From Candidatus Woesearchaeota archaeon B3_Woes (GTDB lineage: Archaea; Nanobdellota; Nanobdellia; Woesearchaeales; B3-WOES): 64,000 bases of DNA. Made by a program: the position numbers and the translations under genes. The DNA is taken from contig NJBG01000001.1 of assembly GCA_005222965.1 (NCBI GenBank), positions 82,323 to 146,322 on the forward strand, in the 5' to 3' direction. Below the pieces are notes generated by a model. That model made no database searches, was not told the origin of the DNA, and saw only the letters and a list, made by a program, of their open reading frames with translations. Shown here one piece after another: positions 30,458-35,667 of the stretch (within the stretch, counting starts at the first letter, position 1; the number at the start of each line of letters is the position of its first letter).

Positions 30458-30573
30458 TTCCTTATATTTAACGAGAAAACAGTTTGGTTAAAAAACCCAT
30501 ATAAGCCATCTATTTTTCTTCTCTCGTATTACCCAGAAATCATTTCCAATTTAAAAAGTTTGTGGTTTATGCA

Positions 30574-31341
30574 TTAATCGCTTCCACTTTTAACATTTAC
30601 AAAATTATATGTTTTTGATAGAACGTCTTGACAGTTTAAACAACTAACATTAACATCAACAGAAAAGATTCCTTGATCATTAATTTTAAATTGTATTATT
30701 TTATCAATACAAGAATAAGATTTTGCTGGTATCTCATCATAATACGTTGTTTCTTCTATAAGGTTATTTGTACTTATAAGTATACTAATTTCTCCACTAT
30801 CAATCTCTCCTTTATTAACAATGCAAAATTCGGCTAAAGTAGAATTTCTAATAAGTTCTCTTTCAATATCTTCATCTTCTAAATTTGAATGGGTTATATC
30901 TAAAAAAGCTGTGGTTTTTAATTCTTCAAATTCTAATATTTTTTGATTAAATTCGTTTTGTTTATTATTTATTTTAATATAAATTATTATGTTAAAAGCA
31001 GAGAAAACAAACAAATAGAGGGTTATCAACACTGTTATTACTTTTAATTGAAGGTCTGTATCTCTGTGTCTTGCGCTATGTCTTGTTGTGATTAGTTTTT
31101 GTAACTCTTCTTTTAATTGATAATTATTTAATACATTGTAATAATCTTTATTTTTAAGAATTTTTTTTTGAAGAAAAGGATAATCATTGATGATTTTTTC
31201 TACCCTACAAAAATCCTTATGAAATTTTTTTTTAAGTTCAGAAAGATCTACTTGATTCTTTTCTAAGTCTAAAATATAATTAAGGATTTTTATTAAGATT
31301 TGCGTTCTTGGTTTTTTAAATAATTTGTCTAAAATAATCAT
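30574..31341 (-). CDS. Membrane protein with N-terminal winged-helix-like region, one TM and an extracytoplasmic domain
   Basis: Hydrophobic stretch LITLYLFVFSAFNIIIYI in mid-protein. Confidence 0.45.
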   Translation of the reverse strand: MIILDKLFKKPRTQILIKILNYILDLEKNQVDLSELKKKFHKDFCRVEKIINDYPFLQKKILKNKDYYNVLNNYQLKEELQKLITTRHSARHRDTDLQLKVITVLITLYLFVFSAFNIIIYIKINNKQNEFNQKILEFEELKTTAFLDITHSNLEDEDIERELIRNSTLAEFCIVNKGEIDSGEISILISTNNLIEETTYYDEIPAKSYSCIDKIIQFKINDQGIFSVDVNVSCLNCQDVLSKTYNFVNVKSGSD

Positions 31342-31607
31342 ATAATTAGTAAAATCTTTTTAATACTTAAATGTATCATTTTCACTTGTCATTTGCCATA
31401 CAGCCTCAAAGTATATAAATAAGGTATACCTTACTATATTTAATATTGAGTAGGGGTGATAAACAATGCCAGACAACCTTAAGAAAAAAGGACCAAAAGA
31501 TAGAAAAAGGCAAAGTAAACAACCTTGGGAAAGGGCACATGCGCCAAAACGTAAGTCTCCTGGAACAAGAAATAAAAGCAGAAATTGAAAAAGTTTGAGG
31601 TTATAAA

Positions 31608-31892
31608 ATGAGTGATTTACCATTATATTTAGATATCAGGGCATCGAAAAACTTCACAGAAAAGGAAGGATATTGGTATGATACAATTTCTACATGGATG
31701 GGTAGATTCAAGGAAGAAGGAAAAAAGAAAATTACTTTTTTAATTAATGATGAAGCAAAAGAAAATTTTATACAATTTTTAGATAATCATAATATTAAAT
31801 TTGAATATAGTGGGTTTGTATCTGAATTTTATAAAGATATGCCAACAGTTCCTATGCCTATTTCAGGTCAGATGTATACAATTTTTATTTAA
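31608..31892 (+). CDS. Hypothetical protein (94 aa)
   Basis: ORF. Confidence 0.35.
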   Translation: MSDLPLYLDIRASKNFTEKEGYWYDTISTWMGRFKEEGKKKITFLINDEAKENFIQFLDNHNIKFEYSGFVSEFYKDMPTVPMPISGQMYTIFI

Positions 31893-32244
31893 TAAGAACT
31901 ATAAAAGTAATTATCCATACTATAATTTGAATTGTAAAAGAAAAGAACACTAACCATCTTACTATTTTATAATAACCATGTTTTCCATCCATTGAACTTG
32001 GATAGTTTTTACGAATACAGTGCTCATAAATTGATCTGTTGATGTTAGATATAGCACTTTCAAATATCCATGTACCTAATGCAACAATTATAATCCAAAA
32101 ACAAACATATCTAACATAATTAACATCGATATTTTTAATATCTAAGAAGAGCGATAAAATAAAAACAATTCCACTCAAATAAAGGAGGTATTTATAATAA
32201 TTATTGATTTTAAGATTTTTAAAAAGTTCAGGAAATTCCCCCAT
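31885..32244 (-). CDS. Small integral membrane protein
   Basis: Three predicted TM helices. Confidence 0.45.
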   Translation of the reverse strand: MGEFPELFKNLKINNYYKYLLYLSGIVFILSLFLDIKNIDVNYVRYVCFWIIIVALGTWIFESAISNINRSIYEHCIRKNYPSSMDGKHGYYKIVRWLVFFSFTIQIIVWIITFIVLIK

Positions 32245-32257
32245 TTTAACTTATCTC

Positions 32258-32986
32258 TTAATTTAAATGTTTGATGTCTGGTTCAACTGGTTTTCCAAAT
32301 CCATCTTTGAAACATTTACAATTACATAAATAATTTTTACACTCAAATTCTTTTCCTTCATCTGTTCTTAGAGGATAGTTTGTTTTTTCTTTACAAGTTT
32401 CTTCACACATAATTTTTAAGCCTTGTGGATTTCTATAACAATCGGATGTTGTTTTACAACCAGCAAAAATAATTATTCCAAAAGAATCAAGTTTCCATTC
32501 TCCATTTTCCTTATTAAAATAAATTGAACCAGATGTTTCTTGATAACCATTATAGAATGTCACATCATAATATGCAATAGCTATTTCATCACTTTCCATA
32601 TCAATCTGTTTTAAAATTACTGACCTATAAGTATCTCTTCCTTTGAATTTAGGATATAAATATATAAATTCATCTCTTGTTTTATATTTTTGATGTCTAG
32701 AATGTAACATATCATATATATCACCAAATTTGTCTTGTTCTACAAATCTGCCAAAATCTTCTGCTGTTTCTCTAAATTTCTTTTCTTCGTTTTCATCTAA
32801 GGTTGTTTTTTCAGTTAGAATTTCTTCATTAACTTCATCTTCATCACAAATAGAATTATCATTATTATCTAAACAACAAGAAGCACCAACTAAGATATAT
32901 GGTTTGTTACAAGTAACTTTAACAACTTGTCTTTGTTCACAAGCTATTAAAAATAAAAATAAAATTATAAATATTATTTTTTTCAT
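32258..32986 (-). CDS. Secreted Cys-rich lipoprotein-like protein
   Basis: Signal peptide ending LIAC, then many Cys (about 14). Confidence 0.5.
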   Translation of the reverse strand: MKKIIFIILFLFLIACEQRQVVKVTCNKPYILVGASCCLDNNDNSICDEDEVNEEILTEKTTLDENEEKKFRETAEDFGRFVEQDKFGDIYDMLHSRHQKYKTRDEFIYLYPKFKGRDTYRSVILKQIDMESDEIAIAYYDVTFYNGYQETSGSIYFNKENGEWKLDSFGIIIFAGCKTTSDCYRNPQGLKIMCEETCKEKTNYPLRTDEGKEFECKNYLCNCKCFKDGFGKPVEPDIKHLN

Positions 32987-33128
32987 AATATCGCCCCAAT
33001 TATTAAAACAAGTCTAATAATATATAAATATTTACATTTTATATCTAAAGGAGGTATATCCTTATATAAAGGAATTCTACTTACAGTTATTATGTTGTAA
33101 AATGTTGATAAATTGAAGAGGAATTAAA

Positions 33129-34079
33129 ATGATTAGTAAAAAAGAAAGATTAAATATCTTAAAATTTATTCAAAAAGAGGATACTCCTTCTATAGAAGAT
33201 ATTGTAAATAGTCTTAAATATAATTTAGAAGATGTTAAAGGTGCTTTAAAATATTTAGATGAAAAAAGACTAATCACATGTAAACTAAAATCAGTAGATG
33301 GTTTATGGAAAATGATTGATATCACGGCTGATGGAATAGATATGATAGAAGAGGAGCCCCCTGAACAAAAGAAAGAAACTTTCATAGGAAGAAACCTCCG
33401 GGTTTTTATTAGTTATTCTGAAGAAGATAAACTTATTGCTAAAGGTATTAAGGACGCTTTAAATCATTATGGTGTTCAAGGGTTTCTTGCTCATGAAGAT
33501 ATTCCAACTGGAGAAGACTGGGTTGAATCTATCAAAAGAGGTATAAAACAAAATGATATTTTTATTGCCATGTTATCAAAGAAGTATAAAGAATCAGACT
33601 GGACTGATCAAGAAGTAGGAATTGCAGTAGCAAACGAAAAGCTGATAATTCCTGTTTCAATTGATGGTTGTATGCCTTATGGATTTATGATGAAATATCA
33701 AGCTTTTAAAAAATTTAAATATGAAAAAGGCAAACACCATAATGGAAAAGAATTTATCTATTGTTATGGTGATGTTTTTAAAATTATAAAGATGATTGGA
33801 CAGAAAGAAGAATTCAAAGAAAATTTAAAAGATTGTTTTATATCGAGTTTAAAGAATGCTGGTAGTTTTAGGGGTGCTGAAGAGATAATGGAAACCTTGG
33901 TTGGATTGGGTTCTTTTAATAGTGTCCAAATCAATCAAATAATAATTAATTGTTCACTTAATAATCAAGTTTATCAAGCTAATGGTTGTCAACCAATTAT
34001 TAGAAATCTTATTAAAGAATATGATAAAAAGATTGATGAAGAAAACAAGGAAAAGATTAAAGAAGTAATGGCGTTATGA
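33129..34079 (+). CDS. Winged-helix plus TIR-domain protein
   Basis: N-terminal wHTH-like segment (SIEDIVNSLKYNLEDVKGALKYLDEKRLIT). Then a TIR pattern: VFISYSEEDKLIAKGIKDALNHYGVQGFLAHEDIPTGEDWVESIKRGIKQNDIFIAMLSKKYKESDWTDQEVG...IIPV. About 120 aa at the C-terminus are unassigned. Confidence 0.65.
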   Translation: MISKKERLNILKFIQKEDTPSIEDIVNSLKYNLEDVKGALKYLDEKRLITCKLKSVDGLWKMIDITADGIDMIEEEPPEQKKETFIGRNLRVFISYSEEDKLIAKGIKDALNHYGVQGFLAHEDIPTGEDWVESIKRGIKQNDIFIAMLSKKYKESDWTDQEVGIAVANEKLIIPVSIDGCMPYGFMMKYQAFKKFKYEKGKHHNGKEFIYCYGDVFKIIKMIGQKEEFKENLKDCFISSLKNAGSFRGAEEIMETLVGLGSFNSVQINQIIINCSLNNQVYQANGCQPIIRNLIKEYDKKIDEENKEKIKEVMAL

Positions 34080-34163
34080 AGATTTATAGAAAAAAATTTT
34101 AATTTTTCAAACACCAGCTTCCAAAGACCTCCAAAGAAACATGGCCCAAAAATACATCAGAAT

Positions 34164-34946
34164 TTAAACAACTACTTCCTGAACAGGCCCATCATAACCA
34201 ACAGCCTTTTGTAAATTCTTTAATAGCTTTCCTGTCTTTCTTGTTCCTTCAGGCATGTTATCAATAAAATGAGATGCATAATCTCTAACTACTTGAGCTA
34301 TTTCAGGATCAGGATTTTGCTGATCAATATACAACAATGCTCTAACTCCTTGGAATATATTATCCCTACTATGATTTTTTTGTATATGTTCAAAAATCTC
34401 TTGTGATAATTCCAATGGAGTCGAAGCCACAATCTCAGCAGAATCCATCTCAACAACCTTTTCCCAAAATTGGAAAAGATAATCTGAACTATCATAACAT
34501 CGTTGTGCAATATTTCTCATACTATCATATTCTGTAGTTGAAGTAAATGCTCTATCTATTTGACTATATATAGAATTACCAATAGTTCTCAGTTCATGTA
34601 ATACATTTTCATGATCAAAATGTTCAGTTGCCCATTTATAATTTGTATAACTTATATATTTTGTATCAGTTCCCATACTCATTAAAGATGTAATATCTGT
34701 TCCATTTAGTATATCCTCTAAAATCTGTTTAGTGGTTAGATTATGATGTGCTGTTCTTTGATTATTTCTTATAAATTCCTCAGATAAAGGTTGTGAATGT
34801 GTAGTTGGAAATAAGGCATCATAAGCTCCTAAAATACTAGCTGTTGTTTCAATCTCTTCAGCAGAATCAGCTTTTCTTTTTCTAATCTGAGATACAATCT
34901 GTGTTACAGCATCTTTATTAATTCCATGCATTATTTCATGAACCAT
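34164..34946 (-). CDS. Hypothetical protein (260 aa)
   Basis: ORF adjacent to the TIR gene, no family recognised. Confidence 0.45.
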   Translation of the reverse strand: MVHEIMHGINKDAVTQIVSQIRKRKADSAEEIETTASILGAYDALFPTTHSQPLSEEFIRNNQRTAHHNLTTKQILEDILNGTDITSLMSMGTDTKYISYTNYKWATEHFDHENVLHELRTIGNSIYSQIDRAFTSTTEYDSMRNIAQRCYDSSDYLFQFWEKVVEMDSAEIVASTPLELSQEIFEHIQKNHSRDNIFQGVRALLYIDQQNPDPEIAQVVRDYASHFIDNMPEGTRKTGKLLKNLQKAVGYDGPVQEVVV

Positions 34947-34953
34947 TTTAATT

Positions 34954-35667
34954 TCAAAAACTATAACTCACACTAAATCCTAAACTATTATTGCTTTTAA
35001 AACTTTTTCCAATTGCTTCAAAATGATGAATATCTGAAACAAGAGACAAATTTTCAGTTAGTTTAATTGAATAATCTGCCCTGATTCTAATCCCTGCTAT
35101 TTCAGTCCCTTCTATAAAGTATTGATTATTACCTAATAAAACCATAGAAACGTGAAAATCACTAATTGAAGTGTTAAATCCTCCTTCTACAACAACACCA
35201 TCCCCGTCCTCAGTATAATCAACAGTGCATTCAAGTCTAGCATTAAGTGAATTATCTCCTTCTTTATGAATAGAATAGTCTAAAATTAATGAAACTTCTT
35301 CTAAGTTTAAATCATCTCTTTTAATATCATATCTTACCCAGGCAAAAGTTCCTTTAAAATCATCAGTTAAGTTTTTAGAAACACTCACTCCAAAATCTGT
35401 TTCTTTTTTAAACCCAGGATCTATCTCATAGCTTCCCCAAAACCAACTATTTAATTTATAACCATCTTTCCCAAATTGTATGTAAGCAATTGGTTGTACA
35501 GAAGGAGTTGGGCTTGGTACAAAACCACGAAGATTGGCATACTGGTCAGTAACTCTTGTTTCAATACCGCCATTTACTGCTAATTTGTCCTGAGCACTAA
35601 CTTCTCTTGCTAAACCAAGAGCTAATAATAACGCAGATAAACTTAAGATTGATTTAGTTAGAGTCAT
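34954..35667 (-). CDS. Secreted beta-rich protein with C-terminal aromatic residue (outer-membrane-barrel-like)
   Basis: Signal peptide LLLALGLAREVSAQ, alternating hydrophobic pattern, terminal GFSVSYSF. Confidence 0.45.
   Translation of the reverse strand: MTLTKSILSLSALLLALGLAREVSAQDKLAVNGGIETRVTDQYANLRGFVPSPTPSVQPIAYIQFGKDGYKLNSWFWGSYEIDPGFKKETDFGVSVSKNLTDDFKGTFAWVRYDIKRDDLNLEEVSLILDYSIHKEGDNSLNARLECTVDYTEDGDGVVVEGGFNTSISDFHVSMVLLGNNQYFIEGTEIAGIRIRADYSIKLTENLSLVSDIHHFEAIGKSFKSNNSLGFSVSYSF

Follow-up and report, generated by a model that had tools for sequence, protein, structure and literature searches.

A gene that encodes a TIR domain and lies beside two genes of unassigned family raises the question of whether it is one part of a multi-gene immune system or acts by itself. 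The gene (A, locus tag CEE44_00685; 33129–34079, forward strand) was called as an open reading frame (ORF) in a 64,000-nt stretch, here termed the window, of a 1.0 Mb contig of Candidatus Woesearchaeota archaeon B3_Woes (NJBG01000001.1, positions 82,323–146,322). Its 316-aa product is 100% identical to the B3_Woes database entry and is composed of a winged helix-turn-helix (wHTH), a TIR domain and a predicted sensor domain. On the reverse strand follow gene B (CEE44_00690; 34164–34946; 260 aa by ORF call) and gene C (CEE44_00695; 34954–35667; 237 aa). An initial annotation of the window had proposed an immune-type, NAD-processing TIR protein after a winged-helix N-terminus, functionally linked with both neighbours and comparable to Thoeris. 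The analysis reported here on balance favours a different arrangement, in which A would be a stand-alone, single-protein antiviral sensor-effector of the abortive-infection type, encoded in a variable island.

The TIR domain of A comprises residues 91–195 (33399–33713, forward strand) and carries the motifs FISYS, FLAHEDI and SDWTDQEVG. Pfam TIR_2 (PF13676) matched residues 92–183 with 81.6 bits (E = 8.6e-23; cut-off 28 bits) and also matched 81 of 81 family members, and the thresholds of Pfam TIR and ThsB_TIR (23.4 bits vs. a cut-off of 21.2) were passed as well. The AlphaFold2 model of A, predicted from 81 homologues with a mean pLDDT of 89.5, displayed the flavodoxin-like alpha/beta TIR fold, and the top Foldseek matches of this model in the PDB were the NAD-processing TIRs of SPARTA TIR-APAZ, SpbK, SARM1 and TIR-STING. 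The TIR-like core that the initial annotation had seen in the 316-aa product is therefore borne out by the TIR_2 match, the confident model and the structural matches.

Residues F93, F119, H122, D124, Q161, E162, G164, G185 and F186 were invariant in the 81-member alignment. In a profile search of the PDB, in which Cat1 was the best sequence match (1.8e-7), the family segment SDWtdQEvG was aligned with KDWTNYEL of AbTir, EDWVHKEL of TIR-1 and SDWCWDEL of Cat1, so that E162 (codon 33612–33614, forward strand) fell on the Glu of these proteins. This Glu, E208 in AbTir and E642 in SARM1, is the catalytic residue. E162 lies in the 'W-x-x-x-E' helix by which enzymatic TIRs are recognised and, from its invariance and alignment, is the predicted catalytic glutamate, in agreement with the conserved catalytic region noted initially. 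Judged from these profiles and alignments, A is almost certainly a TIR protein of the enzymatic type. Its proposed assignment to the immune, NAD-processing TIRs is further supported by the structural neighbours SARM1, SPARTA TIR-APAZ and SpbK, and by the occurrence of some homologues in defence islands.

The region C-terminal to the TIR domain was not covered by any Pfam family. In the AlphaFold2 model, a beta-hairpin (residues 199–211) is followed by a seven-helix domain (213–315) with pLDDT values of 96–98, and the all-helical domain was delimited as residues 213–316 (33765–34076, forward strand). A profile built on the sequences of 31 members over this region matched two PDB chains named 'Dandelion', 9wwz_A (E = 4.6e-5) and 9wxf_A (1.1e-4), the latter from an entry with 12 chains. 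Used singly, 24 of the 31 members matched the C-terminal end of the PADLOC model PD-T7-3 (best E-value 3.5e-8), with A itself matching model positions 326–419 of 432 (8e-6). PD-T7-3, now called DARNA, is an abortive-infection protein encoded by one gene alone. A HEPN tRNase forms its N-terminal part and a Pds5-like helical domain (aa 160–456) its C-terminal part; it is dodecameric and is switched on by single-stranded DNA (ssDNA) presented by phage SSB (bioRxiv 10.64898/2026.02.22.705581). 'Dandelion' was not found as a defence system in the literature search, and it is very probably the same protein as DARNA, because its chain shows F, D, N, Q, Y and W at the DARNA positions with a constant offset of +5. 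From these matches, the C-terminal domain of A is with good confidence regarded as homologous to the DARNA sensor domain, specifically to its distal part.

No match to a HEPN domain with the Rx4H motif was found in A by profile scans or in the AlphaFold2 model, in which the N-terminal and central parts are wHTH and TIR; A is therefore not a member of the DARNA family, but a domain-swapped relative. In effect, A would be a DARNA-type sensor on which a predicted TIR NADase replaces the HEPN tRNase. The C-terminus of another PADLOC model, PDC-S34 (positions 295–382 of 384), was matched by 18 of the 31 members as well (best E = 2.6e-8). This second candidate defence protein, to which no function is assigned, has the same C-terminal helical module, and the sensor module is therefore found with at least three N-terminal partners, namely HEPN, TIR and the N-terminal part of PDC-S34.

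The residues by which DARNA recognises its ligand were then compared with the family alignment. In the cryo-EM structure, the distal C-terminal domain of DARNA reads a "CT" dinucleotide by its bases: F368 stacks on the thymine and Q403 gives it two hydrogen bonds, the cytosine is recognised by D372 and by the backbone of N408, and W406, N402 and Y405 touch the next base; the F368A and W406A mutants each lose defence and in vitro activation (bioRxiv 10.64898/2026.02.22.705581). By alignment to these contacts, the predicted ligand-contact residues of A are F247, E251 and N278-N279-Q280-V281-Y282 (33867–33974, forward strand). F368, N401, N402, Q403 and Y405 of DARNA have equivalent residues in A, of which F247 (for F368) is F, Y or W in 79/81 members, N278 (for N401) is N in 79/81, Q280 (for Q403) is Q in 68/81, Y282 (for Y405) is Y in 29/81, and N279 (for N402) is variable in the family. 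E251 takes the place of D372 (N or E in 51/81), and the position of W406, Q283 in A, is variable. F247 and Q280, the ligand positions most strongly conserved in the family, coincide with the thymine-reading pair F368/Q403 of DARNA. By analogy with DARNA, ssDNA may quite possibly be the actual ligand of the helical domain, although we stop a little short of calling this probable.

The arrangement of the locus was analysed to determine whether A has a partner. B and C lie on the opposite, converging strand, where 84 nt separate the stop codons of A and B, and cannot be co-transcribed with the TIR gene; only 7 nt apart from each other, they form a gene pair of their own. The upstream neighbour o242 is divergent, and the TIR gene is therefore monocistronic. 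Its upstream region (33044–33128, forward strand) contains a TATA-like TTATATAA (33062–33069) that lies 67 nt upstream and, before the ATG, a GAGGA located 8 nt ahead of it, and is read as the putative promoter. The locus is surrounded by housekeeping genes of archaeal type, namely those for SBDS, proteasome alpha, RNase P Pop5 and ProRS.

The family was then surveyed across one genome per GTDB species with a pattern derived from a 17-sequence alignment, which yielded 193 loci. The closest relatives were from other Woesearchaeota (52, 48 and 43% identity) and Nanoarchaeia (46%). Further archaeal loci were found in Bathyarchaeia, Methanocellaceae, Methanoperedens, Thermoplasmata, Nitrososphaerales and unclassified archaea, and many bacterial loci in Zixibacteria, Ignavibacteria, Saccharibacteria and other Patescibacteria, Acidobacteriota, Chloroflexota, Caulobacter and Thiospirillum; among the best 80 loci 23 were archaeal, a figure biased by ranking on similarity to an archaeal query. 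The composition of the TIR gene was typical of the window (GC z = -0.5; GC at third codon positions z = -0.1; codon distance 0.172 vs. 0.208 ± 0.039), that is, it is adapted to the host genome and bears no sign of the recent horizontal transfer that had been considered initially, in agreement with the nearest relatives being of the same phylum. Searches of IMG/VR contigs and phage records yielded no relative, and four full-length relatives were located on plasmids, mostly conjugative ones.

Clustering of all ORFs in the best 80 of the 193 loci revealed no conserved partner, as the TIR gene was present in 79 loci and the next largest cluster in 8. This result bears on a Thoeris-like explanation, by which A would be a ThsB-type sensor making a cyclic ADP-ribose-type messenger for an effector encoded elsewhere. 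A shares the TIR fold and the conserved catalytic Glu with ThsB and has weak matches to its profiles (ThsB_TIR as above; PADLOC ThsB, 1.5e-8; NCBIfam ThcB4, 1.6e-10 but far under its cut-off), and TIR chemistries are indistinguishable by sequence alone. However, Thoeris has a ThsA-type effector partner, which is absent from the window and from the 80 homologue loci, and no SIR2, SLOG, Macro, transmembrane or caspase-type effector was detected in the island or its flanks. Moreover, the fused sensor-like domain of A better suits a self-contained sensor-effector, and stand-alone TIRs were deliberately set aside by the large Thoeris survey itself. A Thoeris-like role, as suggested initially, is hence considered quite improbable.

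Several homologues were situated in defence islands. Two homologues were inserted in a type I restriction-modification operon, with HsdM on one side and HsdS on the other, together with HigB/HTH-M78 and DUF4238 genes; the two contigs are unrelated and bacterial (L013, 3486–9159; L014, 3301–14114, also with Trypsin_2), and the segments are compact multi-system defence islands. In a third locus (L012, 192–8607), a 44%-identical homologue had a type III CRISPR RAMP gene on one side and, on the other, a Bil-like operon with Prok-E2_C/ThiF, Prok-JAB, Y4jH-like multiubiquitin and DUF2604 genes. One homologue adjoins a serine recombinase and has a phage-type integrase nearby, and others were found by a methyltransferase and an ABC transporter, by ParAB, or in a metabolic neighbourhood. 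In 40 loci, 144 ORFs lay no more than two places from the TIR gene, and among these the descriptive counts were four ResIII, three Pol-beta nucleotidyltransferases, two each of type III/II methyltransferases, HerA, UvrD and PD-(D/E)XK, and one each of HsdR-like and MvaI/BcnI genes, besides numerous housekeeping genes. On a bacterial contig of 118 kb, about 4.7 kb just upstream of the TIR homologue (L009, 1261–6000) was without annotated genes.

Comparison with related contigs located the TIR gene within a variable island of about 3.5 kb (30579–34153) between the conserved Pop5 gene and gene B. The related contigs are syntenic: one flank has a PKD protein, ProRS, a 91-aa ORF, C and B, and the opposite flank Pop5, proteasome alpha and SBDS; the contigs of the B and C homologues were all from one metagenome project. 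The blastn homology of the window to these relatives ended at 30571–30578 and restarted at 34103–34154, just past the stop codon of B. As synteny restarts at the 3′ end of B, the TIR gene is inside the island, while B and C are outside on the conserved backbone. Besides the TIR gene, the island contains o255, a 40-aa basic ORF, o94, o119 and o242; none of the five ORFs that the window has between Pop5 and B had a counterpart in the syntenic relatives, and none of the five relatives, all with C-B beside ProRS, had a TIR gene. Their corresponding island holds other genes: L005 encodes a DUF4145 protein there, and L001 a staphylococcal-nuclease-like protein together with a B paralogue.

These data also decide on the three-gene immune system, TIR with B and C, for which physical adjacency is the only argument. 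The strands are convergent, the C-B pair is kept without the TIR gene in the five relatives, the TIR gene lies in the island and B and C outside it, and none of 90 other TIR-homologue loci had B, C or any other neighbour from the window. With strand, synteny and co-occurrence all contrary, a TIR-B-C operon or system was rejected and is taken as extremely improbable. The functional link with both neighbours drawn in the initial annotation, for which no conserved linkage was found, consequently falls for the trio but leaves the TIR domain untouched, and B and C should not carry a TIR-associated annotation.

The N-terminus of A does form a wHTH, as first proposed (residues 1–67; 33129–33329, forward strand), though it is a rare add-on in the family. 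Most of the 120 homologues listed were 215–250 aa long and aligned to residues ~88–316 of A, that is, the TIR and the C-terminal region; the wHTH was common only to P0002 among them and absent from about 79 of 81 family members, and tblastn with the wHTH gave a single further weak match, in a Nitrososphaerota locus (L078). Most members have no extension, and the N-terminal extensions of the others are of at least three unrelated kinds. Two recurrent unannotated modules take the place of the wHTH, one of ~110 aa ('QYGS...' type) and one of ~125 aa ('GYDNxxGG...' type), in alignment members P0012-14, P0021, P0024, P0056; P0083, P0096, P0100, P0101, P0114 and others. This modularity suggests that accessory N-terminal domains are swappable on a constant TIR-sensor core. 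One may speculate that the wHTH, as a lineage-specific add-on, serves self-regulation via the gene's own promoter or provides an extra DNA contact.

The rarity of the wHTH also argues against a non-immune function, in which A would be a wHTH regulator or a housekeeping enzyme with a TIR/nucleoside-deoxyribosyltransferase-like fold, engaged in nucleotide metabolism or ligand-controlled transcription. A domain absent from nearly all members cannot define the function of the family, and the TIR_2 score was far above that of Nuc_deoxyrib_tr. In addition, the gene is missing in close relatives and resides in a variable island, unlike housekeeping genes, and its C-terminal domain is common to an experimentally validated defence protein. 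Such a function is accordingly rated improbable.

Under the stand-alone sensor-effector that we favour, the helical domain (213–316) would be the sensor, binding exposed ssDNA or a related nucleic-acid cue of viral replication. Several protomers could assemble along the ligand, by which their TIR domains would be brought together; the TIR domain, with E162, would be the effector and, after such gathering, would most likely degrade NAD+. NAD+ depletion would abort the infection, which would give the protein an antiviral role in this archaeon. Such assembly is the general activation principle of TIR NADases, as in SARM1, TIR-STING, TIR-SAVED, Cat1, SPARTA and the filaments of SpbK.

Several observations weigh against this proposal. 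The DARNA homology spans only ~70–100 residues, with E-values of 1e-5 to 1e-8, at the tip of the 300-aa C-terminal domain of DARNA. W406, essential in DARNA, is not conserved and D372 only loosely, so the ligand may differ from that of DARNA, and N278, the most conserved position, is not among the reported DNA contacts of DARNA and may be structural. As to the genomic setting, no known defence function was found for the other island genes in PADLOC and profile scans, and many homologue loci have ordinary housekeeping neighbours; the defence-island association of the family, a descriptive one, is real but partial.

The missing W406, the partly kept D372 and the restriction of the likeness to the tip would also suit a stand-alone TIR defence effector with another trigger, whose helical domain is an oligomerisation scaffold or a sensor of a protein or small molecule. 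The C-terminal domain of DARNA makes subunit contacts as well (bioRxiv 10.64898/2026.02.22.705581), and SpbK, whose trigger is a phage portal protein, ranks high among both the structural and the PADLOC matches of the TIR part. However, the best-conserved positions of the family match the thymine-reading F368/Q403 and not the subunit interfaces of DARNA, and a trigger of this other kind appears unlikely.

Genes B and C were characterised in their own right. In the initial annotation neither had a recognisable family, and this stood: no significant match was obtained in sequence and profile searches of the PDB for either, no known family was matched by B, and C had no match in Pfam or NCBIfam. 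Among 5.8 billion clustered proteins, three homologues of B and three close ones of C were found. B, to which no function is assigned, is acidic (net charge -14) and without a signal peptide, and had no detectable relatives outside the syntenic clade. It evolves much faster than its flanking genes, with about 50% amino acid identity to the syntenic relatives vs. 71–89% for the other backbone genes, and it is tandemly duplicated in L001 (4939–6498) and split into two ORFs in L008 (1087–1877). An HExxH metalloprotease motif at its N-terminus (MVHEIMHG) was rejected, as the homologues start at the equivalent of Met6; the motif is an artefact of the mechanical ORF start call, and the true start of B is probably Met6 at 34931.

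C carries a typical Sec signal peptide (...LALGLAREVSA|QD), and 142 of the 212 residues of its mature part lie in period-2 amphipathic windows, compared with 52 ± 20 in shuffled sequences (maximum 118 residues in 500 shuffles). An exhaustive HMMER search of 1.84 billion representatives retrieved 15 relatives, including one in an independent Woesearchaeota metagenome-assembled genome and one on a 246-kb contig by TrmB, NFACT and MutL genes; the locus of a remote homologue (L015) had no B-like neighbour. The family comprises proteins of ~230–270 aa with the N-terminal motif 'Y-x-N-x-R-G-F-V-P...P-S-x-Q-P' from at least two Woesearchaeota lineages. Two remote relatives gave sub-threshold matches in the expected register to Gcw_chp (PF09694, E = 0.017) and YaiO (PF19413, E = 0.004). 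C resembles these families in size (~210–240 aa mature), signal peptide and alternating amphipathic beta segments, but the matches are under the gathering thresholds and the terminal aromatic residue of C is not conserved. The AlphaFold2 model, from four sequences only, had a mean pLDDT of 28.8.

The initial annotation had taken C for a secreted outer-membrane beta-barrel. Its secretion and beta periodicity are upheld by the signal peptide and the amphipathic windows, while the outer-membrane part is neither upheld nor refuted: no outer-membrane protein profile was matched significantly, and the C-terminal Phe was rejected as a beta-signal since close relatives end in ...SYSLGN and remote ones in K, E, L, D, R or I. 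The archaeal host is not known to have an outer membrane. From its sequence features, C is classed as a secreted, beta-rich protein of a rare family, mainly of Woesearchaeota; a porin-like barrel is possible, and membership in a rare porin-like beta-barrel family of Woesearchaeota is speculative.

Within the island, short promoter/leader modules are kept while the cargo genes differ (window 30579–34153; L001 7475–7646). Segment X (window 32991–33043, 53 bp) is 98% identical to L001 7646–7594 and lies in both directly upstream of a secreted-protein gene, yet the genes are unrelated (o242 vs. a 407-aa gene in L001). Segment Y (window 31380–31468), 84% identical to L001 7560–7475, carries TATATAAATAAG and a GAGG and, as a putative promoter, precedes the staphylococcal-nuclease-like gene in L001 and the 40-aa basic ORF in the window. 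L001 has X and Y side by side; in the window, 1.5 kb separates them and their order is reversed. The extremely basic 40-aa ORF MPDNLKKKGPKDRKRQSKQPWERAHAPKRKSPGTRNKSRN (31466–31588, forward strand) directly behind the Y module is below the length threshold of the ORF list. The product of o242 (32258–32986, reverse strand) is lipoprotein-like (MKKIIFIILFLFLIAC...) with many cysteines, and neither a homologue among the syntenic relatives nor a family match was found for it; o119 encodes a membrane protein. B, C and the island genes had no match in PHROGs.

Compared with known systems, A is most readily described by what it shares with DARNA of E. coli, as both are single proteins with a homologous C-terminal helical module and an effector N-terminal to the sensor. 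They differ in the effector, a HEPN tRNase vs. a predicted TIR NADase, in the extent of the common region, as A shares only the distal ~100 residues of the ~300-residue Pds5-like domain, in W406, which is not kept in A, and in the extra wHTH of A. SpbK of Bacillus subtilis ICEBs1 (PDB 9phb) is similarly a stand-alone, single-gene TIR on a variable or mobile region, and its TIR is close to that of A (Foldseek rank 2; PADLOC 1.5e-5); however, it has an N-terminal non-TIR region and a phage portal protein as trigger, and is without a DARNA-like C-terminal domain. TIR-SAVED (7qqk), the CARF-TIR Cat1 (9mud), TIR-STING (9lmq) and SPARTA TIR-APAZ (8qlp) join a TIR NADase to a module that senses a ligand or nucleic acid and are activated as the ligand drives TIR assembly, as modelled for A, but their SAVED, CARF, STING and APAZ/Ago sensors are unrelated to the helical domain and need a separate signal generator or a guide-loaded Argonaute.

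The preprint on DARNA has no mention of TIR fusions, homologues or archaea (bioRxiv 10.64898/2026.02.22.705581), and the literature search found no paper linking TIR proteins to the DARNA domain. What is new here, as far as alignments and profiles tell, is this domain link and a widespread family that joins TIR with a DARNA-type sensor. We tentatively put forward, as a possibility still short of likely, that TIR and the DARNA-type sensor together define an undescribed, widespread single-protein immune family, in which exposed ssDNA would directly activate a TIR NADase. We know of no trigger for most stand-alone TIR defence proteins, and the link to a structurally solved trigger domain turns an anonymous "TIR domain-containing protein" into a testable sensor-effector model with named key residues, E162 for the effector and F247 and Q280 for the sensor. 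It extends a sensor so far described only in E. coli to the archaea, including DPANN, whose antiviral repertoire is poorly known, and a HEPN-to-TIR effector swap is typical of modular immune evolution. If the model is true, the DARNA sensor would be a portable module, exchanged between RNase and NADase effectors and at work in bacteria as well as in archaea, the ultra-small symbiotic ones among them.

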